A stretch of DNA of 64,000 nt, from IMG/VR virus record IMGVR_UViG_3300028920_000035, positions 83,623 through 147,622 of that record. One strand, 5' to 3'. A model generated the notes under the pieces. The model saw only the letters and a program-made list of their open reading frames with translations, ran no database searches and had not been told where the DNA came from. Position 1 is the first letter of the stretch, and each line of letters starts with the position of its first letter. Below are positions 5,254-56,893 of this stretch, in pieces. Both the position numbers and the translations under genes were made by a program. The stretch comes from a virus.

Positions 5254-5707
5254 CGACTAGCTGCCGTTGTTTGATTTCGCCGAGCAGCTCGCGAGTGGCA
5301 CGCATCAAGGCCATCCCTGCGACCTCAGGGGCGGACTTCTTGACGACCTCTACTCGCTTGTCAAGCTGGGGGCGCCGGTCGAAGTCGAAGGGTACATAGG
5401 AAACCAGAACCTGGGCAGCGCGGGGTACTGAAAGGGCAATAGAAAAGGCGTCCAGGTGGTGACGTCCGGTAAAGAAGTAGTAGACCACACCACGGGACTC
5501 GCTCGCTCCCAGCTGGTAGCGCTCCCCGGTAGCCTTCGAGATCATGAACATAAAGCGCTCAAGCATAGCGTTGAGGCTCAGCTTGGCTTCGACGAACCCC
5601 TCGCCTGGGTCAAAGGCAACACGCGTACGAACCCAGTTGGGTACCTCCAGCGTCGGACGAAGTCGGTGAAGGTAGTAGCGGGCGGCGACTCTCTTTGCGA
5701 TGCTCAT
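5240..5707 (-). CDS. Hypothetical protein with N-terminal RVAARY tag
   Basis: In-frame ATG at 5707 gives MSIAKRVAARYY; the longer tracked ORF overlaps the helicase gene. Confidence 0.6.
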   Translation of the reverse strand: MSIAKRVAARYYLHRLRPTLEVPNWVRTRVAFDPGEGFVEAKLSLNAMLERFMFMISKATGERYQLGASESRGVVYYFFTGRHHLDAFSIALSVPRAAQVLVSYVPFDFDRRPQLDKRVEVVKKSAPEVAGMALMRATRELLGEIKQRQLVARVG

Positions 5708-5801
5708 CACCGTAGCGAGCGGAACAAAAGATTGTGGTGTCGTTGAGGGTACACCACTACCGGTTGTGAGTGGCTGAAAAGACGTGGTTCTGCTTAAGGG
5801 C

Positions 5802-5812
5802 CGGTGTAGCCT
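5802..5812 (+). promoter_or_regulatory. CGGTGTA promoter-like motif (leaderless spacing) for the replication operon
   Basis: CGGTG-TAGCCT-6 nt-ATG(5819); the motif recurs before at least 13 genes. Confidence 0.65.
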
Positions 5813-5818
5813 GAGGAA

Positions 5819-8707
5819 ATGCCAGATCCGATCAAGCTGTCGACCAAGCAGCGGGAGAAGTACGATCATCTTCTGAAGGTTCGAGCCAGCAAGACCTGCA
5901 CGCTCAAGGGTACGCCACGGATGGCGAAGGAGATCACGGGTCTCGATGGGCAGCGAGTCCCTTTCAAGTTGCGGTACTACCAGGTCCAGGGTGCATACCA
6001 TTTGCTGGCGATGCGGCGCATGGTCTTGGGGGATGCGACGGGTCTAGGTAAGACCGTTGAGGCACTGGTGGCCATGGCGCACATCTGGGGCATTGAGCCA
6101 TCGACGCGCTTCGTGATCGTCGCTCCCAAGAGTGCCCTGTACCAGTGGGCTAGCGAGATCGAACGCTTTCTCGTGGGCGTTGAGCCCATCGTGGTCGAAA
6201 CCCCTAAAGCGGCCAAGGGACGGGCTCGCATCCAAGCTCGCGGAGATGCCTACCGTCGTTGGCTCGAAGCCATGAACGAGCGTCGGCATGCCGTGCTGAT
6301 CATGAACTACGCAACCCTGATCCGGGACTGGAATCACGGCGCGTTTCAACCCGCGTTGCCCAACGGCAAACCCGACCCTAAGGCGCCCGTCAAGCCAGGA
6401 CTCCTCGACCGAGTGATGGCGGCTGCGACCCGACGTAACCTAGGTGTCTTCTTTGACGAATGTTTCGACTACCACACACCAATCACCTTGGCGGATGGGT
6501 CCACTGAATTGATCGGCAAGATTGTCTGCACCAAGACTCCGGTTGAGGTGCAATCGTGGAATTTTGAGAAGGGTTGTGCAGAGACGAGAAGGGTCGTGTC
6601 CTGGTTTCGCAACCCGTTGCGTGACCATCACCTGTTGAAGATATCGTTTCGATATGCCAACTCTTGCCGGGTCACCAAGAGCCATAAATTCTACAAGACC
6701 AACGGCAAGTCTGTTCGTGCCGGCAGCCTGAGGCCCGGCGCTGAGACGGCTTTCTTGAGTCTGAAGGTCCCCTCCTTTGACCAAGAGCAAGTTGTCTTGG
6801 GAAGCCTGCTTGGCGACGCTTGCATCCGCAACCCAGAAGGGGCTTGGGGGGTCACGTTTACCCAAGGTGAGGACCAGCTAGACTATCTGACTTTCAAGCG
6901 AGAGGTCCTGTTGTCGCTAGGAGTGTCTGAGTTCAACTCCGGGCCCAGTGGCTACAACCCTGCTAAAACCGTACACCACTTCAGGTTGGGGGCGAACCCT
7001 TTCATCAACTCGCGGCACCACCTGCACAATGGGGCCCGTAAGACGGTCACAGTCGATTGGTTGGACGCCATTCAACCTCTCGGCTTGGCGGTCTGGTACG
7101 GAGACGACGGCTCTCTTGGAGAGTATCGCTCCAAGAAAGGTGCAATTCGGCGCCACATCATTCTCAACACACAAGGTTTCACCAAAGCCGAAAACGACCT
7201 TCTAGCAGGTTGGTTAAGGTGGCGGTGGGGTGTCAAAGCCAAGGTGCGCCTGTCGAGCAAAGGTTTCTACCTGTACCTTCCCCACGATGCAGCCGAACGC
7301 TTTTTGGGGTTGCTACCAGGGGCTTTGCCTGGGATCGAGTACAAATTTCCCGACAAGAAGCCTCTCCCGCTTCTCGACAGAGAACCTCACACGGGATTAG
7401 TTCGAGATGAGGTTGTGGAGGTGGTACCCTGGTCACGGGCGCCCAAGAAGCGCGACTGCCAACAATATGTCTATGATATCGAGGTGGAGGGTAACCATAA
7501 CTACTTCGCGGCTGGAACGCTCGTCTCTAATTGCCAGGCATTCAAGAACATGCGCACGAAAACCTGGGAGATCTGTCGCTACTTGTCAGACAGATCAGAC
7601 CGGGCCTATGGGCTTAGTGCGACCATCATCCAGAATCGCCTGGAGGAAGCGTTTGCCATTTTCAAGTGCCTTGTTCCCAAGCTATTCACCACGAAGACAG
7701 CATTCCTGGAGGACTACTGCCACACGCAGCTTCAGCCGGTCAAAGGAGGGCGCAAGGTACCGATCGTCGTAGGGTACAAGAACCTCAAGCACTTTCGGAA
7801 TCGCATTGACCCCTTCTACTTGGGACGGCTCAAGCACGAGGTCAGTGATGAGCTACCGGTCCTGACGACACGTGAGGTCCGGGTCACTCTCAGCAAGGCC
7901 GAAGAGGTCAAATACAGGGAAGCCCTGACCGGTGTGCTGGAACTGGGCGATGGTGATGTGCGCGACTATGAAGAGCACAAGGCATTGGTCGCCCTGACCT
8001 ACTGCCAGCAAGTCGTCAACTCGCTCGCCCTGCTCAAGTTCGAGGAAGGAGATGAGGTAGGTCACGACCAATTCGACCTTGAAGCAGGAGACTACAAATC
8101 ACACAAGGTCGGATCCCTCAGCAGCAAGGAACAGGCGTTGGTCGATCTGCTCACCGAAGAGTTGGATGGTCAGAACGTCATTATCTACACGCGGTTCGAG
8201 TCATGGGTCGGCCGCCTCCAGACCATTCTGAAAAGGCACAAGATCGAGGCGGTTCGCATCACGGGCAGGGAGACCAATGCTAAATTGAGGCGAGAGGCCC
8301 AGGAAGCCTTCCAGGACCCTCAGAACCCGGTGCGAGTTGTGGTCATCACCGACGCCGGTAGCGAGTCTATTAACCTCCAGACGGCCATCGCCGAGGTCTT
8401 CCTCGATAGTCCCTACAATTGGGGCAAGTACGTGCAGATCATTGGTCGCATGATCCGCATTGGGTCCCCTCACCGCGGTGTGCTCGCCTACCATTTCATT
8501 GCCGAGCGGCCCCTCAAGAAGGACGCACGGACTATTGACGATCATGTGCTCAAGCTGTTGGCGAAGAAGAAGAACCTCGTTGACAAGGTGCTGGGAGAGG
8601 CAGCTGTGGGCGCCTTGGAGTTCGACTCTGACGACACCAACTCCATCCGGGCGCTTATCAACGCGATGGCCGGCAAAGAGGGAGACGCGAAGAAGGGGAA
8701 GAAGTGA
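5819..8707 (+). CDS. SNF2-family (SF2) helicase/ATPase with intein
   Basis: LRYYQ Q-motif, GDATGLGKT Walker A, FFDE|CQ Walker B interrupted by an intein, SAT motif III, QIIGRMIRIG motif VI. Confidence 0.92.
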   Translation: MPDPIKLSTKQREKYDHLLKVRASKTCTLKGTPRMAKEITGLDGQRVPFKLRYYQVQGAYHLLAMRRMVLGDATGLGKTVEALVAMAHIWGIEPSTRFVIVAPKSALYQWASEIERFLVGVEPIVVETPKAAKGRARIQARGDAYRRWLEAMNERRHAVLIMNYATLIRDWNHGAFQPALPNGKPDPKAPVKPGLLDRVMAAATRRNLGVFFDECFDYHTPITLADGSTELIGKIVCTKTPVEVQSWNFEKGCAETRRVVSWFRNPLRDHHLLKISFRYANSCRVTKSHKFYKTNGKSVRAGSLRPGAETAFLSLKVPSFDQEQVVLGSLLGDACIRNPEGAWGVTFTQGEDQLDYLTFKREVLLSLGVSEFNSGPSGYNPAKTVHHFRLGANPFINSRHHLHNGARKTVTVDWLDAIQPLGLAVWYGDDGSLGEYRSKKGAIRRHIILNTQGFTKAENDLLAGWLRWRWGVKAKVRLSSKGFYLYLPHDAAERFLGLLPGALPGIEYKFPDKKPLPLLDREPHTGLVRDEVVEVVPWSRAPKKRDCQQYVYDIEVEGNHNYFAAGTLVSNCQAFKNMRTKTWEICRYLSDRSDRAYGLSATIIQNRLEEAFAIFKCLVPKLFTTKTAFLEDYCHTQLQPVKGGRKVPIVVGYKNLKHFRNRIDPFYLGRLKHEVSDELPVLTTREVRVTLSKAEEVKYREALTGVLELGDGDVRDYEEHKALVALTYCQQVVNSLALLKFEEGDEVGHDQFDLEAGDYKSHKVGSLSSKEQALVDLLTEELDGQNVIIYTRFESWVGRLQTILKRHKIEAVRITGRETNAKLRREAQEAFQDPQNPVRVVVITDAGSESINLQTAIAEVFLDSPYNWGKYVQIIGRMIRIGSPHRGVLAYHFIAERPLKKDARTIDDHVLKLLAKKKNLVDKVLGEAAVGALEFDSDDTNSIRALINAMAGKEGDAKKGKK
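6461..7531 (+). mobile_element. Intein with LAGLIDADG homing endonuclease (357 aa) in SNF2 Walker B
   Basis: Starts CFDYHTPITLADG, ends YDIEVEGNHNYFAAGTLVSN|C; LGSLLGDA and AVWYGDDG blocks. Confidence 0.93.
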
Positions 8708-9663
8708 CCGACGAGCTGTGCCCCCGTTGTGGAAAGGCGCCCATTGAAGGGTGTCGGGGGAAGGGGTTCATCCTGAAGGAGTCCGCCACTGGAGAGACCT
8801 CGCGGACTTGCCCGAACATCTTGATCGGACGCTTCTACGCAAAGTGGCAGCGAACCTTGGGGCAGGATGCTCAGCCTATGATCGACATTCCGCCCGACAA
8901 GCGGTATCGGGAGTCCCCCCTCTACGTGAAGGGGGAGATCGACCTGACTCGGAACAACCTGCTCATCACTGGGTGTGCGTGGATTCGCTTCTTGAACCAC
9001 CTGCGCTGGGTTCTGCTTGTGAAAGGTCTTGACTTTCATGCGCGGACCACAACGGATGCCCGCATCCAAAACGTGTTTGTCGGAGCTGAGGCCACGAAGG
9101 GCAGTCCCGACAACAAACACGAGTTCCTCACCACAAACCGGTCCCTTTACGACCACGCGGCTCCGCCGGATCTGCTGATTATTCGACTAGGGGTGTTGAG
9201 CTACCGGTACAAATCAGCTCCTGGTGCTTTACTGGATACATTGCGTATCAGGGAGTCGCTGCACCGCCCCGTTTGGCTAGTGGAAATCCCAGGCCGCCCC
9301 TTCGAGGATTGTGCTTCTCATGACGGGGACGTTGAGGTGGAAATCAGCCGATTCCCTCGACTGGAGCTTGGAGCCGATGACCACGACCCGAGCGCCCTTG
9401 ACATGACCGAGGGGGAAGACCTGTTGGGAGAATTGGGTGAACCCGAACCCATAGACGAACCCGTAGACGAGCCGATGGGAAGGGTCGAGGAAGGAGTCGA
9501 AGAAGACGAAGAAGACGAAGACGAAGACGACAAAGAAGAAGATGAAGAGGACCTTTGTGGCGAAGATAGTCCGATCGGCGGTCCTTCTAACCCCTGGGCC
9601 CGCGGTCGGGGTTATCCAAAGAAGCGAGGGGGAGGGGGAGGGGGAGGGGGAGGTCCAATATGA
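8704..9663 (+). CDS. Putative helicase-loader-like (DnaC/IstB-like, degenerate) protein with Zn finger and acidic tail
   Basis: CxxC...C...C at the N-terminus, PDLLIIRLG resembling a Walker-B strand, position directly upstream of the DnaB gene; no Walker A. Confidence 0.4.
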   Translation: MTDELCPRCGKAPIEGCRGKGFILKESATGETSRTCPNILIGRFYAKWQRTLGQDAQPMIDIPPDKRYRESPLYVKGEIDLTRNNLLITGCAWIRFLNHLRWVLLVKGLDFHARTTTDARIQNVFVGAEATKGSPDNKHEFLTTNRSLYDHAAPPDLLIIRLGVLSYRYKSAPGALLDTLRIRESLHRPVWLVEIPGRPFEDCASHDGDVEVEISRFPRLELGADDHDPSALDMTEGEDLLGELGEPEPIDEPVDEPMGRVEEGVEEDEEDEDEDDKEEDEEDLCGEDSPIGGPSNPWARGRGYPKKRGGGGGGGGGPI

Positions 9664-12395
9664 AGCGACTACTCCGTGGTATCATTGCCTTCGACGACAA
9701 GACCCCTATGCACTTGTTGGTGGCCAATTTCCGCCGCCTTCGCACGAGCGGGTATCAGTGGCAGCCCACCGACAAGCAGATCTTCGACTTCTGTGCGGAC
9801 CACCTGCACCGCTACATGGAGATGCCATCCGTTCGTAGTCTGGTCGACTACTACGAGGTAGCCCACGACACCGAGGCGTTGGAGCGACTCAAGGACATCT
9901 CCAGCGCACAGCTCTACACGGACAGTGGGTATGCCCGTCTACTCGACGACGAGCTGGAGAAGCAGGTCCGCGTCAAGATGCGGGCCCTCGTCAAAGAAAC
10001 CAATGAGATCCTCGAAAGGGGGCTGACCTTTGGGGAGGGGCAGAAAAAGCGGCGCGTCCAAGGACCACGTGAGGCACTGGTGCATTTCACCGAGAAAGGG
10101 CATGACCTCCTACCCCCGGTCGGAAACGCCCTGACCCGTGGTGACCTACGCGATACTGTTGAGTGGGCTCGTGAACGCTACCACGAGGCCGAGATCAACA
10201 AAAGCAAGGTTTACGGCGCTTTCATGGGCCTCAACCACGTGGACACCCAATGCCATGGGTGCAAGCGCGGCGAGCTGTGGCTCCATGCAGCTTTCCCAGG
10301 CGAGTTGAAGACCGCCACAGCCCTGAACTGGGCCTACCACCTCGTCACGCGGTATAGGCACAATGTCTTCTATGTCAACTTGGAGATGAAGTACGAGCAG
10401 GTCATGACACAGGTCTATGTCCTGCACTCATCACACGCCAAGTGGGGGCGCCCCCCGCTCGACTATCGCAAGGCCCGTGATGGGGAACTGAGTCCCAAAG
10501 ACAAGGATTTTTACTTCGAAGTTCTCAACGACTTCGAGAGCAATCCCGAGTACTGTCGGTTCGAGCTTTGGTGCCCGGACCACAACGTGACGATTCAGTC
10601 GACTCGGACCGAAGCTGAGACACTCCATCGTAAGATGGACGTGGGAATGACGTTCATCGACCACGGAGGCATCGTGACGCCGCCTCCGGATCAGAAGGGG
10701 AAGGGTACTACCGAAGCTCTGAACGCGGTGATTCGAGAAACCAAGAAGTTTGCCCTGCATTTCAACAATGGCGAGGGGATGGCGATCTGCATGCTGTTCC
10801 AGATCAACCGCTTGGGGAAGGATGACGCCGACAAAAACGAGGGTCGCTACAAGATGAAAGCGTTGTCATACGCCAATGAGTGCCTAGTTGAAGGGACGTT
10901 GGTGCGAACGGCCAACGGCCTTGTCCCCATTGAGTGCGTCCCGAAAGGTATGCGCGTTTGGAGCAGTACGGGCTGGAAGACGGTTCAGGCTCGCTTGGAC
11001 AATGGCATTCGCGAAACTGTTGAAGTGCGTACCTCTGGAGGTCAAGCAATTCGAGTAACCCCAGACCATTTGTTTCGGACGTTGACACCAGAGGGCAAGG
11101 TTGGGTGGACCGCTGCCGCGGAGTTGAGGGGGCGGTGCGTGCTATCTGACCTGGTGACGTCCTGGGTGTCTGGAAAGGCAGTCACATTACCACCTCTAGT
11201 TATCCAGAAGTATGAGAAGCCCTCAGGAGAGCAGAGCACACCTTTGCAGACCCCTAAGGTCATGACTCCAGAGCTTGCGTACCTGCTGGGCGCTCACGAC
11301 GGCGACGGCCTAGCATTGGACGCCTATCGTGTAGGCTGGACGGGCAACCTCGAAGAGAGGGCCGTGTGCTGCCAGATTCAAACCGCATTTAAGGCTACGT
11401 TTGGGCACGAGATCAAGGAGACTAACTGTCCCTCACGGCCTGGTTCGTTTGAACTGACTAAATGGTCAAAGCCCTTGAAACGTTGGTGCCTTGAGGTTGG
11501 CATGGACCGTCAGCCCTGTATTAGCCCCTACGTGCTGCAAGCAGGGTCGGAAGTCCAGTGCTCGTATCTACGAGGCCTTTGGGATACGGACGGTAGCATC
11601 AACAATCAAGGTGTCTTGTCGATCAACATGGCCGCTGTCAAGGAGCCTCTTCTACGACAGGCCCAACTGCTGCTTGCGGGGTTGGGCATCGCCTCAACGT
11701 TGCGCCCTGGAAAGGACCGTTGCCTATTGTGGATCACGTCACAAGATGCGCGTGACCGGTTTGCTGCTGTCATTGGGCTCTCTGAGTCTTGGAAGCATCG
11801 TCGTCTACAGCTACAGGCCCGTAAACGACCCTTGGAAAAGGGAACCTGGCCCCTAGGCGAGGTCTACCTGAAGCTGTACGAACGCTATGCACGCAAGCGT
11901 GGATGCCTCGACGGCATGGTCTTCCACCGCACTTGCTCGGTGGCAGCAACACAGGTGCGAAAAGGCCGACGGGACGTCCCTCAAGGGGCGTTGGTCAAGC
12001 TCTTGAGTGCCCTTGGGGGTGTTTGTGACGATCAGGTCGATTTCTTGAAGGCATTGGTTCTCAACTGCCGCCCCCAAATAGTGGAGAGTGTCACACCTGC
12101 CGGTAAGGCCCCAGTGTATGACCTGGATGTGGGAGGAGACCACGAATTCTCTGCCGGAGGGCTTCTCGTTCACAATTGCGAACGGTCGGCGGACTACATC
12201 ACCACGACGTACCTGAACGACGAGCTGCGAGAGAGCGGGGAGACCATCATGTGCAATCTGAAGAACCGGGACAATCCGATCTTCAACCCCATCATCTTGA
12301 ACATCGACTGGGGTTCGCGGCGCCTCTACGACCGGTCTGTGCCCGGGGAAGACGACGCTGTCGAGGATGCTGATCTGATGACAGCCATGGCCTAG
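9660..12395 (+). CDS. DnaB-like replicative helicase with intein
   Basis: GELWLHAAFPGELKT (atypical P-loop), NLEM, FIDH, FQINR, and ANE|CERSAD after splicing. Confidence 0.88.
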   Translation: MKRLLRGIIAFDDKTPMHLLVANFRRLRTSGYQWQPTDKQIFDFCADHLHRYMEMPSVRSLVDYYEVAHDTEALERLKDISSAQLYTDSGYARLLDDELEKQVRVKMRALVKETNEILERGLTFGEGQKKRRVQGPREALVHFTEKGHDLLPPVGNALTRGDLRDTVEWARERYHEAEINKSKVYGAFMGLNHVDTQCHGCKRGELWLHAAFPGELKTATALNWAYHLVTRYRHNVFYVNLEMKYEQVMTQVYVLHSSHAKWGRPPLDYRKARDGELSPKDKDFYFEVLNDFESNPEYCRFELWCPDHNVTIQSTRTEAETLHRKMDVGMTFIDHGGIVTPPPDQKGKGTTEALNAVIRETKKFALHFNNGEGMAICMLFQINRLGKDDADKNEGRYKMKALSYANECLVEGTLVRTANGLVPIECVPKGMRVWSSTGWKTVQARLDNGIRETVEVRTSGGQAIRVTPDHLFRTLTPEGKVGWTAAAELRGRCVLSDLVTSWVSGKAVTLPPLVIQKYEKPSGEQSTPLQTPKVMTPELAYLLGAHDGDGLALDAYRVGWTGNLEERAVCCQIQTAFKATFGHEIKETNCPSRPGSFELTKWSKPLKRWCLEVGMDRQPCISPYVLQAGSEVQCSYLRGLWDTDGSINNQGVLSINMAAVKEPLLRQAQLLLAGLGIASTLRPGKDRCLLWITSQDARDRFAAVIGLSESWKHRRLQLQARKRPLEKGTWPLGEVYLKLYERYARKRGCLDGMVFHRTCSVAATQVRKGRRDVPQGALVKLLSALGGVCDDQVDFLKALVLNCRPQIVESVTPAGKAPVYDLDVGGDHEFSAGGLLVHNCERSADYITTTYLNDELRESGETIMCNLKNRDNPIFNPIILNIDWGSRRLYDRSVPGEDDAVEDADLMTAMA
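10881..12176 (+). mobile_element. Intein with LAGLIDADG endonuclease (432 aa) in DnaB
   Basis: CLVEGTLVRT ... TPDH ... YLLGAHDGDG, YLRGLWDTDG ... VYDLDV...GLLVHN|C. Confidence 0.95.
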
Positions 12396-12700: not shown

Positions 12701-13361
12701 GGACTACGAACGTCAAGCCGCCGCTGAGGATGCGGTACACCAAGCCTGGCTAGATTGGCTGAAGCAGCGGGTCGATAACATCCACAATCATGTCACGGCC
12801 CACTCCATCCTTCAGCGGTTTGGCGTCGAGCTGGTAGCTTCGGACGACGACGAGGAGCAGTTCCGGTGCCCCTTCCACGGACTGGATCGGAAGCCTAGCG
12901 CCCGGGTGTACCCTTCGAGCCCGTTGGGACCGAGCCACGCCTGGTGCTTCGTCTGCCGTGAACGGTGGGATGCCATTGCCTTGTGGCGGAAATTCGGTGA
13001 CTCCAGCGCGAAGTTTTCGCAGTCCGTGCGCGAGATTGAAGACGCCTACGGATTGACGAGGCCCCCACGTCCGAATGGGTCCCAGCTGCCTGTGCCGCTG
13101 GACCCCAGCATCGAGGCAGCCAAGCTAGCCAAGGGGGAATTCGACCGCCTGCTGCTTGCGGTAGACCGCCGCCTGAAGTCGACCCGGAGCGTCTTCAGAG
13201 CGCTGGATGATCTCCAAGGATTCCTGGCCTTGGGGCAGGTAGCTGACAAGCTTGCGGGCGCGGTCGAGCGGGGCAAGGCTGACCCGGCCAAATCGATGCC
13301 AACGTTACGGCGTCTGCTGGACAAGATCGCGGAGAAGGTGCGGTCCGTACCGGAGGGGTGA
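12693..13361 (+). CDS. Stand-alone CHC2 zinc-finger (primase Zn-binding) protein
   Basis: CPFHGLDRKPSARVY...HAWCFVC...DAIALW; no TOPRIM domain; GTG 12693 after AAGGAG. Confidence 0.8.
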   Translation: MARDYERQAAAEDAVHQAWLDWLKQRVDNIHNHVTAHSILQRFGVELVASDDDEEQFRCPFHGLDRKPSARVYPSSPLGPSHAWCFVCRERWDAIALWRKFGDSSAKFSQSVREIEDAYGLTRPPRPNGSQLPVPLDPSIEAAKLAKGEFDRLLLAVDRRLKSTRSVFRALDDLQGFLALGQVADKLAGAVERGKADPAKSMPTLRRLLDKIAEKVRSVPEG

Positions 13362-13798
13362 TGCGGCAAGTCCAAATCAACTTGAGGGAACGTGGTGGCG
13401 ATGTGCAGGTTTTGCTCATTTCCTCACATCGAGGGTGCTGGGAAGAGCCTTGGGACTTGTTGCGTGGCACGGCCCCTGGGGCCCTGCTGAGCGTCGTTTT
13501 GCGAGAAGATGTGGAGCACGCTCTCCACGGTCTGTCTCAGCCTTTGAGTGCCGCCCTGGGCCTACCCCCAGAGGGGTGCCTGCTCAAGCTCCCGAAGACG
13601 GCTCGGCGCTGTCATCGAGAGCAAAAGTGCCCTCTTTACGACCCACGGGTCTGCCATCTCCAGAGTGGCAAGCTGCCGTTGAGTTTCGAGCCCGCCGGCT
13701 TCGACGACGACCGGCTCCGGCTCCAAATCGCGGAACTGGTCCGGTACTGGCGGGAAGAGGTGTATGTAGTAGTCGTCGAGGAGCCAGAGCCCGCATGA
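13361..13798 (+). CDS. Hypothetical Cys-containing protein
   Basis: Stop/start overlaps on both sides (TGATG, ATGA). Confidence 0.65.
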   Translation: MRQVQINLRERGGDVQVLLISSHRGCWEEPWDLLRGTAPGALLSVVLREDVEHALHGLSQPLSAALGLPPEGCLLKLPKTARRCHREQKCPLYDPRVCHLQSGKLPLSFEPAGFDDDRLRLQIAELVRYWREEVYVVVVEEPEPA

Positions 13799-27055: not shown

Positions 27056-28318
27056 ATGCCTGATAAACGTTGCAGTTTCTGCGGGCGACCCGCAAACGAG
27101 GTCAAAAGTTTGATCGCAGCGGCTGACGACGGCCCCTTCATCTGCGACCGGTGTATTGGCCGGGCCGGCCAGAGGATCGCTCAGTCCAGCAAGACTGAGG
27201 GTGACGGTGAGGGGCGCAAGCCGCTGCCCTCACCTCGGGAGCTGAAAGCCCATCTCGACGACTACGTGATTTCCCAGGAGACAGCCAAGATCGTGCTGTC
27301 GTCGGCCTTCTACAAACACTATCTGCGGCGCGAGGCCACACGAAGGGGGGCCCTACCGGGGGCCAGCGAGGCCGAGCCTGAGAAGTCCAACGTCGTCTTG
27401 GCGGGGCCGAGCGGCTGTGGCAAGACCCAGTGTGCACGGGCCATTGCTAAGAAGCTGGGAGTCCCATTCTACGTGGGCGACGCAACTACCTTGACCCAGG
27501 CGGGGTATGTCGGGGCGGATGTTGAGTCACTTCTTCAGGGGCTGATCGCAGAGGCCGGTAACGACGTTGAGAAAGCCCAGTGGGGCATCATCTTCCTCGA
27601 CGAGGGTGACAAACTCGCCCGTAAGTCGGGGCGGGGGTCCACGGGCTACCGAGACGTGACAGGGGAGGGCGTCCAGCAGGCGCTACTTAAGCTCGTCGAG
27701 GGGTCGAAGGTGAACGTCCCTCGCGGCATGGCTCGGATGATCTCGACCAACCAGGAGTCGGACATGATCGACACAACCAACATCCTGTTCGTCTTCGCGG
27801 GTTCATTTGCAGGCATCGAGGAAATTGTTGGCCAGCGGCTCAACAAGAATACCGGAGTGGGGTTCGGCAAGGACAGTAAGCGCGACTTCACGTCGCGCGA
27901 GGTCTACGAGAACATCACGGACGAGGACATTTTGGAGTTCGGGATCATCCCCGAGCTGGCGGGTCGCCTGCCCGTAGTGACCAGTGTGTTGCCGCTCACA
28001 CAGGACGAGATGTACCGGATCCTGACCGAGACCAAGGACGCCTTGGTCAAGCAATTCCGTTTCCAGTTCCGTCTGGATCGAATCGACCTCCAGTTTGAAG
28101 AAGCCGCGCTGCGGGAGATTGCCAAGCAGGCGTGTGATAGTCCCAAGGGCGCCCGCGCGTTGCGGGGTATCGTCGAAAAAGCCCTGGCCCCCTACGTTTT
28201 CGCGTTTGCGGGCCCTAACTCGGAAGCAAGCCGCATTGTCGTGACCGAAGCTCTCATCAAGGGCGAGGGTGAGGCCCTCGTCACACGACGCGCGCATGCT
28301 GTGGCTGCACAGGCGTAG
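27056..28318 (+). CDS. clpX: ATP-dependent Clp protease ATPase subunit ClpX
   Basis: CSFCG...ICDRC Zn domain, [57 protein letters not shown] loop, GARALRGI. Confidence 0.96.
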
Positions 28319-28509: not shown

Positions 28510-28534
28510 TCTTTTTGTGGGACGTGCCCCAGTG

Positions 28535-29299
28535 ATGACCGTCGCAAGCCGTGTAGCCACCCGCTGGAAAGCCGCCAACGTTGTCCCCTTTAGGGGCCGT
28601 CCCAGAGGTCCTCAGGTGGCCATTGGAAGCCGCAAGTACGTTTTGAGCGACTACTGGCCCATGGGAACGGCTGGTGACGGTGAGGCTCCCGCAGCAGGAG
28701 CCCGGGTCATCGACGTGGGGGGCGACAAGTTCCGCTGGTTGTGGGCCTATGACACTGACAAGCAGGTTCTCGCCATGTGGCGCTACACAGACGGGGATGA
28801 GAAGCACTACGAGAACGCCCACCGTGCGGCTCAGCACATTCACAAGCTGGAGAAGCGAGGGCAGCTCAATCGTGTCACCAATGCCGAGTTTCGGATAATC
28901 GAGCGCGAGATGAGCCGTCGCTATGAGGATGTCATCAAAACGCTTCGGGAACACGCCCGGTCTCTCGGCGGCGATTGGCAGGAGCAGGTCAACGCCATCG
29001 CCCGTGATTTCTTCGACCACAAGGTCCGCCCCCTCATCGAGCGAGCCCTGAGTGACGCCGCCCGTGGTGCCGTCCCGATGGGGTTCAGGTTCAATGAGCG
29101 TATACCCCAGAGCCGTGATCAGCAGATTCGGGCTCACATCGTCAGTCAGATGGTCCACCAGCGGTTCAACGAGCGCTTGATCGAGGACACGATGCGCACC
29201 CAAGGGCTCGATCCCGAGATGAGAGGGGTGGATAACCAAGCTGCCTACTGGGCAGTGAGCGAGCTCAGACAAGATGTGTACGAAGAGTACCTACGGTGA
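28535..29299 (+). CDS. Hypothetical protein with N-terminal RVAARY-like tag
   Basis: MTVASRVATRWKAA; TTTTTGTGG motif upstream. Confidence 0.7.
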   Translation: MTVASRVATRWKAANVVPFRGRPRGPQVAIGSRKYVLSDYWPMGTAGDGEAPAAGARVIDVGGDKFRWLWAYDTDKQVLAMWRYTDGDEKHYENAHRAAQHIHKLEKRGQLNRVTNAEFRIIEREMSRRYEDVIKTLREHARSLGGDWQEQVNAIARDFFDHKVRPLIERALSDAARGAVPMGFRFNERIPQSRDQQIRAHIVSQMVHQRFNERLIEDTMRTQGLDPEMRGVDNQAAYWAVSELRQDVYEEYLR

Positions 29300-33945: not shown

Positions 33946-34281
33946 GTGGGCAACCTACAAGCTGCATGCAGAGCGTACCTCAATAGCGAACTGAGGTACA
34001 CAACCCTCCACCACCGTCTGAGCGACTTGCTTGGCGAGAATGCTCACTTGCTCCTGGTGTTCCAGGTCGAGGAAGCCGCTCGTGACAAGGCCAGGGATGA
34101 TTTGCAGTGCCTAGCCTCCCAAGAGGGGGCTTCTCAAGAGGCGGTGGAGCGGCTGAGCCAGGCAATCTTACCAGCGGCACGGGAACGAGCAATCGAGACG
34201 CTAGGTAGAGACCACGGTCAAGAGTTTGTCCAGGAAGCTCTCGACGGTTGGGAACCCGACCTACAAGGAATTGGTAAGTGA
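33946..34281 (+). CDS. Hypothetical protein
   Basis: CGGTG-TAAGAT-8 nt-GTG (motif at 33927). Confidence 0.6.
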   Translation: MGNLQAACRAYLNSELRYTTLHHRLSDLLGENAHLLLVFQVEEAARDKARDDLQCLASQEGASQEAVERLSQAILPAARERAIETLGRDHGQEFVQEALDGWEPDLQGIGK

Positions 34282-34763
34282 AGGTCGGGGACGTCGTTGA
34301 GTACCAAAAGGTCTTGTACCGCGTTTTGCGGGCCAACCGCCTGGTGCACGCGATGGTCCTTGCTCCGTGGGGCTCCGACAACATCGAGGTCGCCGACAAC
34401 GACCCCGAAGTGAAGGAACTGCACAATCCTGCCGACAAGTGGCCCGTGGCCATCGTGATGCTTAAGCATCGCGCGGGCCCCATGCGTGAGGTGATGCGCC
34501 GGGGGAAGGCTTTGACGCCGCTGCTAGAGTGGATGCCGGGGGACCCCTTCCGTCCAGGAGGCGCCATCTTCCTGAATCCCGATCTACACCTGAAACGAGG
34601 CGAGGTCCTCACCGTTCGCCACCAGGACGGGACGACAAGCAGGGTCTCCATCAGCGCGGGGTTCGGGACCGTCGCGCAAAAGCGCAAAGGCATACTCAAG
34701 AAGCCCAAGCTCAAGCCCAACGCCTTCGATCGCATCTGGGCAGGTGAGGACGACGATGACTAG
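34278..34763 (+). CDS. Hypothetical protein with C-terminal PNAFDRI-acidic motif
   Basis: GTGA coupling; ends KPNAFDRIWAGEDDDD. Confidence 0.7.
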   Translation: MKVGDVVEYQKVLYRVLRANRLVHAMVLAPWGSDNIEVADNDPEVKELHNPADKWPVAIVMLKHRAGPMREVMRRGKALTPLLEWMPGDPFRPGGAIFLNPDLHLKRGEVLTVRHQDGTTSRVSISAGFGTVAQKRKGILKKPKLKPNAFDRIWAGEDDDD

Positions 34764-37310: not shown

Positions 37311-37324
37311 TGATTTTCTTGTGG
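37311..37324 (+). promoter_or_regulatory. T-rich YTRT motif (putative late promoter)
   Basis: TGATTTTCTTGTGG-13 nt-ATG; similar sites at 4659, 28515, 50251, 40581, 2833 and on the minus strand at 5727, 48197, 51987. Confidence 0.5.
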
Positions 37325-37337: not shown

Positions 37338-40300
37338 ATGGGTATCGCCGCGCGGGTTGCCGCTCGCTACAAGAGCAAGAAGACGACCGACAAGGGCAAC
37401 GTCATCTACGAGTATAGCACTGCTCAGGTCCAGCATCGCAACCGCGAAAAAGCTAAACGCCTGGAAAAGCTGGAGTCCAACGTCACCAAACTGCGGACTC
37501 AAGTTGAGAAGGACCTCAGCGCCAAGGACGTCAAGAAGCGGCAGACCGCACTCGCGGTGGGCCTCATTGATCATACGTTTGAACGAGTGGGGAACGATGA
37601 AAGCGCTGACGAAGGTCACTTTGGCGTCACCGGCTGGCAGAAGAAGCACGTCACGTTCTCGGGCGGCAAAGCGACCCTTCAATACATCGGCAAGTCGGGG
37701 ATCGAGCAGGAGAAGACCGTCACCGACCAGAAGCTAGTCACCGAGCTGAAACGGGCCGCAGACGCCTGTGGGGACGATTCAGACTGCCTGCTGGCGGATG
37801 TGAGCGCAGAGGACGTCAACGCCTATCTCAAGCCCTACGATGTGACAGCCAAGGACCTGCGGGGCTTCCATGCCAACCGGGTCATGCGAGAGAAGCTCCA
37901 GACCGCGCGCAAGGGTCAGCTTCCCAACGACAAGAAGAAGCGAGAGGAGAAGCTCAAGGCTGAATGGAAGAAGGCGCTTGAGGCCACGGCCAAAGCGGTG
38001 GGGCACGAGCCTTCAACGCTGGGTAACCAGTATCTCGTGCCGGGACTCCAGGACGACTTCATGAGGGACGGCGTGGTCAGCGAGCCCGGCAGCAAGACCG
38101 CAGGCGTCGTCAAGCTCGACCTCGCGTGGGTCGAGAAGATGCGCAAGGACTTCTTGACCCTGCTCAAGAACATCCCCCACATCAAGACCTTCAAGGAGGC
38201 CCATCGAGTCCGCGAGGGCCTTCGGGTCTACCGCGAACAGTTCGACAAGCTATTCCACGAGCGGTTCCTCCGGCACACCCTCAAGTACGACTACGAGGAC
38301 TACGGGATCAGCGAGGACTACGCCAAATACTACACCAAGCAGTTGGGTACTCCGTCGTGGGACTTCTACATCGCGCTGGCAGAGATGCCGATCGGCTTCG
38401 TGGACGACTACTGGGACGAAGACCGCCTGATGGCCCGCTTCACGCAGGAAGCCCCCAAGTGGGAGACTCGCCTCAAGCGCAAGGCCCAGAAGTTCTGGAA
38501 GGTACTCCGAGACGTGCTCCAGGACTTCAAGAACCGGGAGCGGGAGATCCAGGTCAAGACCCTGGACGTGGAACAGGTGACGCTCGAAGGGTTCCGCGTC
38601 CAGGTGCGGGGGTTCGACCCGAGCGACGACATTGACGTCGAGTCACTGGAGGTCTTCAAGAAGGGGCTGAGGATCTACCGACGCAACGCGGCGGCTCGCT
38701 ACCCCCGCTTGCTCAAGGACCAGGTGCCGATCGTCTACGACTGTGAAGTGAATCTGGACAAGGGCGGGACCTACAGTCACAGCGGCCTGATCACGTTCTA
38801 TGCCTCGGCGGTCATCAAGGAGCCCCCCGCTCGTGCCGCCCACATCCTTGCTCACGAGATGGGGCACCACGAGTGGCGTCTGCTCGATGGGAAGGCACGG
38901 GAGTTCTGGGAGACGGCCATCGCAGGCGACTACGGCGACATCGACCTAGCCGAAGTTGTAGCCAAGTGGCCCAGGGGGGCGTGGGCCTTCGACTTCACCA
39001 GGTACATGGCCGACACCGACCCTGTACTAGCCCTTCAGATGGAGGGCCTCGTCCACAGCCAGAACCACGAAGAGCTGAACACCAAGGAGGACTTCCAGGC
39101 CCTGTTGAGCAGCGGCCAGCGGACGCTGCGGGTGCCCAAGACGCCCATCACGGGGTACGCCAACAAGAACCCCCAGGAGGCGTTCTGCGAGGCTGTGGGT
39201 CTGCTGGTGGCCTACGGACCCCGGGCCCTCCACGAACGCGTACGCGGCTGGCTGGGCATCATCCTGGGCAACGAGGTCAAGGTCGCGGCCCGCGTGGCCG
39301 CCCGCTACCGCGCGGCCTTTGACGGCTCGACGCCGTTCGGACCGATGGACCCCGACAGCGTGATCAAGCGGGCCACCCTGGCCCATCGCGTGGCGCGCCG
39401 CTTCATCGCCGACAGCTACGGCGACCCGAAGACCTACCTCGACGCGATGACCGAGGCGCTCCGACGCTACCAGATGTACCGTGACCTCTTGCCGACGATG
39501 CGCAAGGCAGAGCGGTGGGTCGACCAGAACCCGGGCGTGCCCCCGGGCACCGCCCTGACGGGGGACGGCGAGCTGGACAAGGTGCTGCACAACTTCCGGA
39601 TGTTCCTCGTGAAGTATGCCTACGCCGTCCAGGCCATGTATCCGACGATGTGGCGCGCAGGCGGGTCCAAGGTCTTCCTTGCGCTGCTCCAGCAGTACAG
39701 CTTCTCCGACCGGCGCCTACGGTCAAGGGTCGAGCAGGGGGCCAAGTTCTATGGCAAGACACGCTCCAGGAAGCCTCGGCCCGCCCAGTCTGTAGCCGTC
39801 TTCGACAAGGCGTTCACCCAGTATCTGGAGCACCTCGAAACCATCCGCGATGCACTGAAGAAGGGCGTCCCTCATGGTGCTGAAGGTGCAGCCCAGGCGA
39901 AGATCCCCGCGGGCCCCTTCACCCTGGTCAACACGGGCGGCTTCGACGACAAGACGATGGATCTCGTCGCCAAGCTCGCCGTCAAGGCCGCGGGCCTGCT
40001 CAAGCAGCACGGGTACGGCCGTGCCGTCTACGGCGACATCCACATCAGCAACACGGTGGGGCGGTCGTCAAAGGTGTTGGCATTCTACTCGGTCAACACC
40101 GACGAGATGTTCGTTCGGGCCAACCTCAAGGGGAAGTTCGACAGCGCGCTTCACACCATCCTGCACGAGCTGGGGCACCGGTACGAGAAGTTCGTCGCTG
40201 CGAACGACATCCGCGCCATCTACCGCCGCCTGAGCAACCAAACGTCGGACCAGCGCCGGTCCTCCGACCTGAAGTACCCCAAGGAGGGGGAGACCGCCGT

Positions 40301-40571
40301 CGAGCGCGGCAAGACCTTCGTCGTGTCAGGCACCGAGTACACGGGACGTGGCGTCCGCGTGAATCTCAGGCTTCAGGACGACGCGACCAAGCAGTTCCAC
40401 ACGACAATCGACGGCTGGTACGCGATGACCGGCCAGGTCAGCCCCGCAGGCGCCTTCATCAGCAAGTACGCCCGCACGGACCCGAGCGAAAACTTTGCGG
40501 AGATGGTCGCCCACCACTGTCTTGGCACGCTGCCCCAGGAGCAAGTCGAGCTGCTCGAAGCGATCATCTGA
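37338..40571 (+). CDS. Polyvalent protein: type IB DNA topoisomerase plus two HExxH zincin-like metallopeptidase domains
   Basis: Topo IB: ERVGN, FGVT, YIGKSG, VNAYL, TAKDLR, VGH...NQYL. Then HEMGH...ITGYA..NPQEAFCE and HELGH...ISKYA..DPSENFAE. RVAARY motifs at the N-terminus and between domains. Confidence 0.85.
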   Translation: MGIAARVAARYKSKKTTDKGNVIYEYSTAQVQHRNREKAKRLEKLESNVTKLRTQVEKDLSAKDVKKRQTALAVGLIDHTFERVGNDESADEGHFGVTGWQKKHVTFSGGKATLQYIGKSGIEQEKTVTDQKLVTELKRAADACGDDSDCLLADVSAEDVNAYLKPYDVTAKDLRGFHANRVMREKLQTARKGQLPNDKKKREEKLKAEWKKALEATAKAVGHEPSTLGNQYLVPGLQDDFMRDGVVSEPGSKTAGVVKLDLAWVEKMRKDFLTLLKNIPHIKTFKEAHRVREGLRVYREQFDKLFHERFLRHTLKYDYEDYGISEDYAKYYTKQLGTPSWDFYIALAEMPIGFVDDYWDEDRLMARFTQEAPKWETRLKRKAQKFWKVLRDVLQDFKNREREIQVKTLDVEQVTLEGFRVQVRGFDPSDDIDVESLEVFKKGLRIYRRNAAARYPRLLKDQVPIVYDCEVNLDKGGTYSHSGLITFYASAVIKEPPARAAHILAHEMGHHEWRLLDGKAREFWETAIAGDYGDIDLAEVVAKWPRGAWAFDFTRYMADTDPVLALQMEGLVHSQNHEELNTKEDFQALLSSGQRTLRVPKTPITGYANKNPQEAFCEAVGLLVAYGPRALHERVRGWLGIILGNEVKVAARVAARYRAAFDGSTPFGPMDPDSVIKRATLAHRVARRFIADSYGDPKTYLDAMTEALRRYQMYRDLLPTMRKAERWVDQNPGVPPGTALTGDGELDKVLHNFRMFLVKYAYAVQAMYPTMWRAGGSKVFLALLQQYSFSDRRLRSRVEQGAKFYGKTRSRKPRPAQSVAVFDKAFTQYLEHLETIRDALKKGVPHGAEGAAQAKIPAGPFTLVNTGGFDDKTMDLVAKLAVKAAGLLKQHGYGRAVYGDIHISNTVGRSSKVLAFYSVNTDEMFVRANLKGKFDSALHTILHELGHRYEKFVAANDIRAIYRRLSNQTSDQRRSSDLKYPKEGETAVERGKTFVVSGTEYTGRGVRVNLRLQDDATKQFHTTIDGWYAMTGQVSPAGAFISKYARTDPSENFAEMVAHHCLGTLPQEQVELLEAII

Positions 40572-51968: not shown

Positions 51969-52021
51969 TTCACGGCCCCTTTCATAGGTATGTTTGGCCT
52001 TCACCAAGATCACCCGTAGGG

Positions 52022-52375: not shown

Positions 52376-52430
52376 TGCCCCCTACATACACCGAGCCGGC
52401 CTGATAAAGCACTCATTGGCCGGGCCAGTC

Positions 52431-53795: not shown

Positions 53796-53800
53796 TCATC

Positions 53801-56242
53801 ATGGGACTCGGCGCTGAACTGATCCAAAGGATCGAGAGAGCGCTCGCTGCCAAGGATGGGCGGGCCCTCGAAGAGATTGCCAAGTGGGCCCGCACGAACT
53901 TCCGCTTCGAGTCAAGCAAGACGCCACGAGGTCAGAAGGACCTCAAGGCAGCCGCCCAGCGGTTCTTTGGCTCTTTGACGCTTGCCACGGGTTTGACCGA
54001 AGATGGGTGGAAGCACACGGCCGAGTGGTGGAAAAGTTTCAAGCGTGACGTGCCTTCCCTCGTACTCCACTTCAGCGCCGAGGGCGATCAGGCGCGTGGC
54101 AAGAAAGAGCAGGTGGTCGAGCTGAAGTTGAGCCATGCTACCTACTTCAACCGATCGGGCATGGCCGAGGCCACGTTCCGCAAGTACGCCAAAGCCGTTG
54201 AAGAGACGCTGGCCTCACTGAAGGGGTGGCGCACGAAAGCCCTGAATGGCAACCTGAAGGTTGTCTTCGTGGGTTCCCAGATGAGGGTGCAAGGCAAGTA
54301 CCGCGAGGCCCTGGACGAGATGTGGGTCAAGGCCACTCCCAAGGTCCTCAAACGCTCGGGCGGCACCTACGGGAGCCCCGAGTACATCCTCGTGCATGAG
54401 CTGGGTCACCGCTACGAGCGTTTCAACTCGCTACCCACCGTGGGCTTCGGTCGGGATGCCGTGTGGCGCACGACACGCTACAGCTGGAACGACGGTGAGG
54501 ACTTTGCCGAGCTGTTTGCTCTGGGGCACTTCAACATCCGAGGCCAGTGGGGGGAGAAACTCGACCTCTTTGAGAAGACGATGGCGGGTAAGACGGCCAA
54601 CATCATCGAGGTGGGTAGGTGCAACCACCAAGCACTCACTCAGTGGTGGGAGCAAAAGGCCACAGACTTGACGTTTATCGACGCGGGGATTGCAGCTCGG
54701 GTTGCTGCCGAGTACACGAAAGGTAAGCCGAGCTACCCCCATCGCACGGACCGCGCTCAACCGACCAATGCGAACCTGTGGGACGACGTGCTGAACGTCG
54801 CGAGTGGTCGTCGCAACGAGCTGAGCATCGGGGACCGCACCATTCACGCACCCAACGAAGGACGTGGCTTCAGCAACATGCCCCAGAACCCACAGGGGAT
54901 CAGCTGGGCCGTCAAACAATACAAAGGATTTGGCGGAGGCTGGAAGGAAGCCAGGAGGGTCACGGTAGAATTCCAAAATCGAGCTGGCCGCATCCTCGAC
55001 GCAGGGGGCATCATGGCGGTCCCTCTGGGCAATGAGCAAGAGCGTCTGTGGATGGCCCGTCTGGCCCACACGGGGTACGCCGAGAAGATTGGCGAGAATG
55101 AGCGAGAGACCCTGTGGGTACGCACCGGAACCAAAAAGATCTCTGACCAGGGCATCCTGTTTCTGTCCAAGCTCAGCAATGGCATCAAGGGCAAGTTCGA
55201 CCTTGACGCCGCCAAGGGTGCTTTGGAGCCGCTCGGGTTCAAGTTCGAGGACGCGGTGGCGGCCCTTCCCCTCGACTACTTCGGTATCAAGAAGGTGGTC
55301 AACCAGAAGCACCCTGAGCTCCCCTGGGACGTAACCGACAGCTCCCTCATCTCGCCTCGACGGGGAGCGGCCGCATTCGAGACCGAAACTGAGGCCCTAA
55401 AAGCGTTGAAGCGGGTCCAAGGGCTCTTCACGGCCAGCCCACCCAAGGGGCCCGCCCGCCCCAAAAAGGGCGAGCTGTACGCCTACTGGAAAAGTACCCG
55501 GGTCCGCCCCGGGTTCGACAAGAGCACCTTCGAGCTGGAGTGGGTCGTCAAGGTCTGGGTGGGCGTACCCAGTCTGCGCATCACGTCGCCCAAGGGAGTG
55601 GTTCTGGACATCCCCACGTTGGATCGGGACCTGCGCAAGAACACCAGCTCGGCCAGCTTTTGGACGTTCATTTACAAGAAGTGCGAAGGCCAAGCCTTGG
55701 CCCAGGCCAAGCTTCAAGAGCTGGGAGAGGGGGCCATCGAAGCGGCCAAACCCCAGCCCAAGAATCCTCGAGGTCTAGCCAACACAGGCACGTGTGGTGT
55801 TTGCGAGCAGAACGTCAAGCTCAGCAAGGGCCGCATCATGCGCCATGGGTGGAAGGTCCAGGGCAGTCGCTGGAAGGGCTCCTATGGTAACTCGTGGCAC
55901 TCTGGACCGTGCTTTGGGGTAAATTACGAGCCATGGGAGGTCAGCTCCAGATCAGCCAAGGACTTCCTCAAGCACCTCCAGAAGGCCGTTCTACCGGTCG
56001 CCGAGGCACGACTGGGACAGGCCAAGCTCAAGCCCGATGTCCTGGTGGTCCGGGACTTCCGTAGTCAACCGCAAGAGTTTCCCCGCGGCGAGGAGAAGAC
56101 CGCCACGCGATTCAAGTACGACGAGGCTTGGGGGAAACGGTTAGCGAGCGCTGAGGAAGAGCTGAAGGCCGTTAAGGACGCCATCCAATTCTTCGAGACA
56201 CGGATTCAAGGCTGGAAAGCCCAACCCCTCCCTGGAAAGTGA
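53801..56242 (+). CDS. Polyvalent protein: HExxH metallopeptidase-like domain, internal KTA/RVAAEY linkers, C-terminal Zn-binding domain
   Basis: LVHELGHRY...TRYS...EDFAELFA; GKTAN; GIAARVAAEY; GTCGVC...RHG...C.G. Confidence 0.75.
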   Translation: MGLGAELIQRIERALAAKDGRALEEIAKWARTNFRFESSKTPRGQKDLKAAAQRFFGSLTLATGLTEDGWKHTAEWWKSFKRDVPSLVLHFSAEGDQARGKKEQVVELKLSHATYFNRSGMAEATFRKYAKAVEETLASLKGWRTKALNGNLKVVFVGSQMRVQGKYREALDEMWVKATPKVLKRSGGTYGSPEYILVHELGHRYERFNSLPTVGFGRDAVWRTTRYSWNDGEDFAELFALGHFNIRGQWGEKLDLFEKTMAGKTANIIEVGRCNHQALTQWWEQKATDLTFIDAGIAARVAAEYTKGKPSYPHRTDRAQPTNANLWDDVLNVASGRRNELSIGDRTIHAPNEGRGFSNMPQNPQGISWAVKQYKGFGGGWKEARRVTVEFQNRAGRILDAGGIMAVPLGNEQERLWMARLAHTGYAEKIGENERETLWVRTGTKKISDQGILFLSKLSNGIKGKFDLDAAKGALEPLGFKFEDAVAALPLDYFGIKKVVNQKHPELPWDVTDSSLISPRRGAAAFETETEALKALKRVQGLFTASPPKGPARPKKGELYAYWKSTRVRPGFDKSTFELEWVVKVWVGVPSLRITSPKGVVLDIPTLDRDLRKNTSSASFWTFIYKKCEGQALAQAKLQELGEGAIEAAKPQPKNPRGLANTGTCGVCEQNVKLSKGRIMRHGWKVQGSRWKGSYGNSWHSGPCFGVNYEPWEVSSRSAKDFLKHLQKAVLPVAEARLGQAKLKPDVLVVRDFRSQPQEFPRGEEKTATRFKYDEAWGKRLASAEEELKAVKDAIQFFETRIQGWKAQPLPGK

Positions 56243-56245
56243 TTC

Positions 56246-56893
56246 ATGGCATTCATCGGCATTAAGCTACCTGAGGGCGCAGCCCGAGTGCTGCACAGGA
56301 TCGATGGCATCCCTGGCGACCGGGTTCCCCGAGACCACGCGCACGTGACCATGGTTTTCTTGGGGGATGAAGTCCCGTTTACAGTCCTGAATCGTGTCAT
56401 CGAGGTGATTGCCAAGCTTGGTGAGACGACACAGCCCTTCCCCTGCTACACGAGCTTGGTCTCAACGTTCCCCTCCGATTCCGATTCCGACTCCGACACG
56501 GTGCCCATCATCTGTCGCGTCAACTCAAACGAGCTGCACGACCTGCAAGCTCGTCTGTGCAAGGAACTCGACAAGGCGCGGGTGCCCTACTCAAAGAAGT
56601 ACCCCGAGTACAAGCCACACACGACACTGGCCTTTGCACCGTCCAAGAATGCCGAGGTCTGGCACGATCGAACCATTCCTACGGTGAGTTGGGGCGTCAA
56701 CGAGATCACGCTGTGGGGTGGGGATGAGGGGGATGAGCGATTGGTCGTCACCGTGCCCTTCGCTCTCAAGCTTGAACTTCCCAAGCGGGTGGCCGCACGC
56801 TACCGGTTCAAGCATCTTCATCATCTTCATCCTTGCCACCATCTTCCTGGTCGTCGCTGCTGGATACCTCTTCATCGTCCCCGAGCGCATTGA
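56246..56893 (+). CDS. 2H phosphoesterase (2'-5' RNA ligase/Acb1-like fold) followed by an RVAARY motif
   Basis: Two HxT motifs (HVTM, PHTTL); AFIGI N-terminus; LPKRVAARY. Confidence 0.85.
   Translation: MAFIGIKLPEGAARVLHRIDGIPGDRVPRDHAHVTMVFLGDEVPFTVLNRVIEVIAKLGETTQPFPCYTSLVSTFPSDSDSDSDTVPIICRVNSNELHDLQARLCKELDKARVPYSKKYPEYKPHTTLAFAPSKNAEVWHDRTIPTVSWGVNEITLWGGDEGDERLVVTVPFALKLELPKRVAARYRFKHLHHLHPCHHLPGRRCWIPLHRPRAH

Follow-up and report, generated by a model that had tools for sequence, protein, structure and literature searches.

Virus record IMGVR_UViG_3300028920_000035 is a 147,622-bp fragment of a huge phage genome (completeness 31%, CheckV estimate), and its last 64 kb (64,000 nt; the window) encode a short peptide, here called the tag, that recurs on otherwise unrelated proteins. 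A six-frame scan with the pattern [ILVM][AP]xRVAx[REK][YWF] returned exactly seven matches in the window, every one within a long open reading frame (ORF), and the rest of the record contains no additional copy. The matches are distributed over five genes, which are listed in Table 1 together with a phage ClpX gene and short upstream sequence elements. An earlier note on this DNA had reported seven copies in five unrelated ORFs; all were recovered at their positions, and the genes are real, with coding-type composition and the copies in frame. This includes the minus-strand gene at 5240-5707, where the overlapping plus-strand ORFs translate to junk.

Shuffling analysis showed that the tag does not occur at background frequency, the outcome that the earlier note had named as refuting its proposal. 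In 2000 shuffles of each of the 121 predicted proteins, 0.009 copies of the strict motif were expected compared to 7 observed, and 0.0045 copies of RVAARY compared to 4 observed; seven of the 15 RVA tripeptides in the protein set fall in the motif. Moreover, 69 of 122 identical residue pairs are encoded by different codons in different copies, and the mean DNA identity among the copies is 63%. Thus, the tag is real and is conserved by selection at the protein level, as had been claimed. Its reported absence from replication and metabolic genes also holds, as no such gene of the record contains a convincing copy: the best match in a replication gene is weak (score 12.1) and lies at residue 953 of a DNA polymerase ORF that also matches intein and homing-endonuclease families in Pfam. 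Full-text literature searches retrieved no description of the motif, which looks like a previously undescribed address label.

Table 1. Tagged genes, tag copies, the phage ClpX gene and upstream elements in the window.
Feature	Position	Strand	Remarks
Tagged gene, 155 amino acids (aa)	5240..5707	-	N-terminal tag; normal protein composition
Phage ClpX	27056..28318	+	Pfam zf-C4_ClpX, AAA_2, D2-small
Tagged 254-aa protein, MTVASRVATRW...	28535..29299	+	N-terminal tag; second ORF downstream of ClpX
1077-aa polyvalent protein	37338..40571	+	Tag, TopoIB (residues 32-227), zincin 1 (HEMGH), tag, tag, zincin 2 (HELGH)
813-aa protein	53801..56242	+	N-terminal zincin-2-like module (HELGHRYE), tag at residues 297-305, ~500-aa module without assigned function
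215-aa 2H phosphoesterase (LigT/Acb1-like)	56246..56893	+	Tag after the domain, then a 29-residue tail
Tag copy 1, IAKRVAARY	5675..5701	-	Residues 3-11 of the 155-aa protein
Tag copy 2, VASRVATRW	28541..28567	+	N-terminal in the 28535 protein
Tag copy 3, IAARVAARY	37344..37370	+	N-terminal, immediately precedes the TopoIB domain
Tag copy 4, VAARVAARY	39282..39308	+	Residue 649, end of zincin 1
Tag copy 5, LAHRVARRF	39378..39404	+	Residue 681, head of zincin 2
Tag copy 6, IAARVAAEY	54689..54715	+	Residues 297-305; weakest copy, Glu replaces Arg
Tag copy 7, LPKRVAARY	56777..56803	+	C-terminal region of the 2H protein
Upstream element TCTTTTGTT	5723..5731	-	~14 nt before ATG of the 5240-5707 gene
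Upstream element TCTTTTTGTG	28510..28519	+	~14 nt before ATG of the 28535 gene
Upstream element TCTTGTG	37317..37323	+	~14 nt before ATG of the 37338 polyprotein gene

The record has no match at the DNA level among GenBank phages. Synteny links it to a complete viral contig of 512,571 bp (G001), and the tag is widespread in a clade of uncultured phages of 200-540 kb. Relatives of the window TopoIB occupy 80 loci, many of which belong to viral contigs 200-536 kb long; 35 of the 59 distinct TopoIB genes lie in ORFs of at least 600 aa, some of which are open across a whole 6.7-kb locus, and 37 of the 59 carry a tag just upstream of the TopoIB domain. The 155-aa protein of the window has no relative in G001 and no Pfam or PHROG match. 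Degenerate DNA pattern counts over 20 genomes were too noisy in GC-rich DNA and miss variants of the tag. Three relatives were fetched whole: G001, G011 and G018. The first of these carries ~20 copies, mostly 5-12 residues past the start (MREDVLTLRVAARF..., MVTDIVITHRVAERF...) with a few at the very C-terminus, and G011 and G018 contain 26 and 24 copies, respectively, many of them at the extreme C-terminus (RIADRYLKE, RVAARWLRRLG and RVAARYLEKTRRV, each followed directly by the stop codon); one protein of the G011/G018 set is tagged at both ends.

Pooled over four genomes, 30 of the 57 strict copies are terminal (22 N-terminal, 8 C-terminal) compared to 8.7 expected from random placement in the same ORFs, and none of 20,000 simulations reached 30. 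The enrichment at N-termini for which the earlier note had suggested testing related phages is thus found, and C-termini share in it. The 27 internal copies lie mostly in long multi-module proteins (1,200 to >2,400 aa), and those mapped to Pfam coordinates fall between modules. The assignment of copies to N-termini or domain boundaries is correct in general; it fails for the copy at 56777, which is located after the 2H domain. The core RVAxR[YFW] is constant between phages whose orthologous proteins share only 35-55% identity. Two residues ahead of the Arg stands a small residue, which is Ala in 30 of the 63 copies, and the aromatic residue is followed by a hydrophobic one, giving the consensus phi-A-x-R-V-A-x-R-[YFW]-phi, a flank pattern indicative of an amphipathic helix. 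A Tat signal, the PP1 RVxF motif, a clamp-binding motif and an SSB-tail motif were considered as identities of the peptide and dropped on sequence grounds alone.

Conservation analysis of the 28535 family illustrates how the tag relates to its carriers. Relatives of this 254-aa protein, which a pattern search of viral contigs did not return, were found by protein search; a fold search and a protein atlas gave no lead to the family's function. Most of the 27 members keep an N-terminal [RK][VIL][AVL]xR[FYW], the remainder of the protein being 35-60% identical, and four members lack the tag, indicating that it is not part of the fold. An AlphaFold2 prediction on the family alignment places a helix at residues 3-13 (predicted local distance difference test score, pLDDT, ~59), followed by a low-confidence linker (13-19) and a confident body from residue 27, so that the tag is modelled as a free helix on a floppy linker. 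The tag is a portable appendage of unrelated proteins, and the proposal of a modular peptide shared by such proteins at termini and junctions is borne out in the window and in the relatives. In a further gene pair, the window gene at 41016-42560 and its G001 ortholog at 59326-60663 (38% identical), the G001 protein opens with a full tag (THRVAERF) and the window protein with a decayed copy (MTYDYRIAAVTLEE), indicating gain or loss of the tag on an otherwise conserved protein.

A genome that is GC-rich as well as Ala- and Arg-rich could give rise to such a motif by chance or composition, or the motif could be a structural element of a shared domain. Against this stand the shuffles, the strong terminal bias, the tagless orthologs and the model, in which the tag lies apart from the protein body; in addition, known folds (TopoIB, 2H, zincin and others) bear the tag here and lack it elsewhere. 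We therefore reject this explanation as highly improbable. That the peptide is a genuine portable docking or address tag is, in our judgement, very likely, and we infer that it has a single common reader.

Comparison of gene structures showed that modules fused in the window occur as separate tagged genes in other phages. G001 encodes a tagged stand-alone TopoIB of 348 aa, 54% identical to the TopoIB part of the window polyprotein, and a separate 738-aa zincin-zincin gene that opens with the tag variant LVLTVAHRY; the G001 stretch aligned to tag copy 4 is degenerate (GSVLAVIH). In G009 and G004, zincin 2 is a stand-alone gene with one or two N-terminal tags, to which copy 5 of the window corresponds. 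These three genomes support the earlier suggestion that polyproteins arise by stringing tagged modules together, and the tag seems to ensure that modules encoded separately share the destination of their fused counterparts. Between TopoIB and zincin 1 of the window protein, however, the junction is tagless. Tagged long ORFs of other relatives (1,200 to >2,400 aa) combine 2H, CCA/poly(A)-type nucleotidyltransferase, HAD_SAK_1, TopoIB, GNAT, C39-like peptidase, InPase, RNA ligase, M14-like peptidase and PAP2 domains, and G001 also tags a DRAT-like ADP-ribosyltransferase and a J-domain (DnaJ) protein.

These proteins resemble the polyvalent proteins that phages and conjugative elements encode and the Dar head proteins of phage P1, which are likewise giant multi-enzyme proteins with zincin (MPTase), 2H, InPase, ADP-ribosyltransferase, GNAT and RNA-repair domains and whose identical modules are found fused or separate. 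In Iyer et al. 2017 (PMC5512222), 2H and InPase are listed as phage-type-specific, and packaging and delivery of polyvalent proteins with the DNA are inferred there and in PMC9503650. The tagged proteins show the same large multidomain combinations of effector enzymes, including 2H and InPase, as well as predicted zincins (HExxH modules), of which the 37338 protein has two and the 53801 protein a third. In contrast, the carriers of known polyvalent proteins are MuF, portal or vRNAP modules, whereas MuF, the usual head carrier, was found in none of the 12 genomes searched for it. These phages instead repeat a short tag at the heads of modules, a feature that a term search of PMC5512222 did not return.

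The internal copies that fall between modules, together with the frequency of zincins among tagged proteins, could also mean that the motif is a recognition or cleavage site at which the embedded zincin peptidases or a prohead protease cut polyproteins into modules. In line with such a role, the stretch D-x-D-L-S-L-N-Y-K recurs directly before the tag at one junction of many polyproteins, and zincin-mediated self-processing is proposed for polyvalent proteins in PMC5512222. However, more than half of the copies stand 5-12 residues from the start or 9-15 from the stop, where cutting achieves little, some junctions are tagless, and the flanks have no fixed P1/P1' pattern. We consider this explanation improbable.

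The acidic stretch itself, ending in D-[LM]-S-L-N-Y-K, precedes an RVAxR[WF] tag at a junction downstream of TopoIB (L046, L063, L089, L090, L095, L099, L101, L107 and others) and may mark a site of cleavage. L077 encodes a stand-alone TopoIB whose C-terminus consists of a related acidic stretch (DKKDRSNNDKDASV) plus a tag. Two small conserved modules also recur just before tags, G-x-Y-C-V-x-S-x(2)-N-P-D-W-x-G-G-C-Y...R-L-x-Q-V-E-x-F-K-H and MPSPVDKYHE..NPDYSxEQAWATAWS. They are found at G001 279499-281715 (before RIARLF) and 274222-274701, in a C-terminal extension of P0004 and at L176 7485-7694, where a module of the MPSPVDKYHE type and a C-terminal tag make up an entire 69-aa protein.

Our leading guess for the destination of the tag, made tentatively, is the virion, as the earlier note had proposed by analogy with T4. 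In such a mechanism, accessory enzymes would bear, at either terminus or where modules join, a short amphipathic helix attached through a flexible linker, one common and highly conserved partner would read it, and this reader might be a head component, so that the cargo would be loaded into the head and delivered with the DNA. Points in favour are the polyvalent-type cargo classes, the absence of MuF, the format of the tag, its persistence in complete genomes without ClpX and hints from promoters (see below). The capsid-targeting sequence of T4 (IPI-III, Alt) is also a short N-terminal amphipathic peptide, modular and found on unrelated proteins, and its cargo includes an ADP-ribosyltransferase. 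It is solely N-terminal, however, and ends in an LxE prohead-protease site at which it is removed, whereas the tag is also C-terminal or internal, is followed by no cleavage motif and has a far more conserved core. Encapsulation peptides of microcompartments and cargo-loading peptides of encapsulins likewise sit at either terminus on a poorly conserved linker and bring diverse enzymes to one shell; the former are amphipathic helices, as the tag is modelled, and encapsulin shells have the phage capsid fold. In contrast to the tag, the peptides of microcompartments are conserved in pattern but not in sequence, and those of encapsulins are extended motifs of the GSL type; for the tag, no shell partner was identified.

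Several observations weigh against a virion destination. The tagged genes are located outside the structural gene blocks, and the tag is followed by only weak preferences for L/I and A/K/R, with no conserved Glu and no prohead-protease site (L/I-x-E). RNA-repair enzymes, TopoIB and the J-domain protein could act equally plausibly in the cytoplasm, and so constant a core is more readily explained by a conserved reader in the host than by a capsid protein that co-evolves. The tag was found on no cultured relative for which a virion proteome exists; in Tunturiibacter phage Tunturi_5, the sole cultured distant relative checked, the three examined of 11 pattern matches lie in no annotated gene in frame, so that no tag system was found in this phage. 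Finally, tagged genes cluster around ClpX: 10 of 13 ClpX loci of relatives have directly adjoining tagged or variant genes from several families, and in G001 four of the 13 genes within 6 kb of ClpX are tagged compared to 26 of 713 genome-wide (Fisher p = 8e-4, relaxed definition; under the strict score p = 0.21, not significant, the local tags being variants). Searches for head proteins were of little help. The gp21-type protease family PF03420 had no match in G000, G001, G011 and G018 and the T4 gp23 family had none either, in both cases with a control search that was silent as well, in every genome for PF03420, and hence uninformative; PHROG and Pfam searches of structural-block proteins gave almost no matches, so that the head proteins could not be named.

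The clustering points to a rival reader, which the earlier note had overlooked while recognizing the modular tag correctly. The window ClpX (top hit among PDB ClpX chains, E = 8.5e-98) has a C4 zinc-finger N-domain, Walker A and B motifs, a GYVG pore loop and a ClpP-docking loop of the IGF type, here VGF. Its RKH loop is not kept, ARMIS replacing GRKHP, and the resulting RMI loop suggests an altered substrate choice. Only one 61-aa ORF separates this gene from the tagged 28535 gene, and in G001 ClpX sits, by eye, in a run of six or seven consecutive tag-variant genes. The tag could be a tethering peptide or degron that docks on ClpX in the manner of the SspB XB tail, whose target is the ClpX zinc-finger domain. 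The clients of the phage ClpX or, in phages lacking one, of the host ClpX would then be the tagged proteins, and their fate would be scheduled degradation with host ClpP, remodelling, or unfolding that permits transport.

XB has the sequence L-R-V-V-K and binds ClpX as a strand. Like the tag, it is a short peptide of basic and hydrophobic character that is attached by a flexible linker and not tied to one position, and here the phage encodes ClpX and tagged genes flank ClpX genes. Tandem double tags occur, the ClpX zinc-finger domain is dimeric, and a core that stays constant among divergent phages is in keeping with a conserved reader. Resemblance to LRVVK nevertheless goes no further than R-V-[AV]: the invariant second Arg and the aromatic residue of the tag have no counterpart in XB, a Leu before R-V is common only in the G001 lineage, and the tag is predicted to be helical rather than a strand. 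XB functions wherever it is placed in a polypeptide (PMC12373786), matching the N-terminal, C-terminal and internal positions of the tag.

The distribution of ClpX among the relatives argues against this reader. Of 20 large relatives, 15 encode a ClpX homolog, whereas ClpX, AAA_2 and the ClpX zinc finger are absent from the complete genomes G011 and G005, both of which bear tags, and also from G014 and G018, and the ClpX-less G011 and G018 carry the most tags. ClpP was found in only one of the 20. In an AlphaFold2 model of a read-through fusion of ClpX, linker and tagged protein, the tag remained a free helix with a pLDDT of ~35, compared to ~59 alone; this model is weak, being a monomer with a junk intergenic linker, misplaced tags of homologs in the alignment and no contact output. 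Furthermore, the window ClpX gene carries the GGTGTAA element of replication genes and not the element of tagged genes. We regard ClpX docking as a serious rival to virion loading, though a rather doubtful one.

Inspection of upstream regions showed that all three N-terminally tagged window genes have T(C)TTTTGT / TCTTTTGT or TCTTGTG 21-25 nt before the ATG. This element has 5 hits compared to 0.7 expected, and the only other gene that carries it lies in the structural block. Similar start-proximal words in G001, such as CTTATAG and CTTTTGAT, mostly precede tagged genes. To judge from these elements, the tagged genes seem to form a single regulon. A small number of those in G011 and G018 have YCTATG[CG], the element found before giant structural genes across the clade, which hints, in small numbers, at co-expression with virion genes. 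Its longer form YYCTATG[CG] precedes giant structural genes (1400-2400 aa) at G000 16924, 58395 and 60431, G011 328071, 343217 and 361786, and G018 62176, and is likely a conserved late-promoter element of the clade, judging by these three divergent genomes. A different element, GGTGTA[AG], keeps a fixed spacing, 15-19 nt upstream of the starts at 5819, 20458, 27056, 33946 and 63382 (9 hits compared to 0.8 expected); its genes encode ClpX, an AAA ATPase, a SNF2 helicase and other non-structural proteins.

A common regulon would also suit a tag that docks the modules on another phage or host hub, so that separate enzymes would be gathered in a compartment, or in a complex for repair and takeover, that corresponds to the fused polyprotein. 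Fusion of the same modules in some genomes and their separation in others is a classic sign of physical or functional association, and a free amphipathic helix, as modelled, would serve such docking. No candidate hub emerged, however, and nothing separates this explanation from the virion and ClpX readings; we regard it as unlikely.

The virion and ClpX readings can also be combined: a ClpX-type unfoldase, the phage's or, for phages lacking one, the host's, would read the tag and prepare polyvalent effector modules for head loading and injection. We give this combination little credence. If true, one peptide would be both ClpX handle and virion ticket, replacing MuF-type carrier fusions, and would explain the presence of ClpX without ClpP in huge phages. 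Knowledge of these phages comes almost solely from metagenomes, and no role has been assigned to the majority of their accessory proteins. The tag marks roughly 20-25 proteins per genome and thereby offers a sequence-only way to pick out one functional class, which probably comprises takeover, repair and anti-defence effectors acting together, and the routing of polyvalent proteins and their split forms becomes testable. If the head reads the tag, it would be a new cargo-loading signal, usable to package foreign proteins; if ClpX reads it, phages would have supplied a natural tethering tag with which unfolding or degradation could be targeted.

Further features were noted as well. The tail that follows the tag of the 2H protein (56804-56893; 29 residues, RFKHLHHLHPCHHLPGRRCWIPLHRPRAH) is rich in His, Pro, Arg and Cys and could be a metal-binding tail or a read-through artefact. 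Inteins with homing-endonuclease domains split the SNF2 helicase, the DnaB helicase and the family-A DNA polymerase of the window (5819-8707, 9660-12395, 13252-19080), and inteins also split ClpX in several relatives (ORFs of 750-800 aa; G001 277071-279446, L176 1-1800). A second recurrent peptide, P-x-x-[WF]-[ED]-[RL]-[LI] followed by an acidic tail (SYPTAWERLANDSS..., GPSLWERLADD, NAFDRIWAGEDDDD), is solely C-terminal. It occurs between 34716 and 62352 of the window, e.g., in the genes at 57317-57508, 57512-58147 and 34278-34763, and also in L178, where four genes have this ending; the proteins that carry it form a set distinct from the RVA-tagged one.

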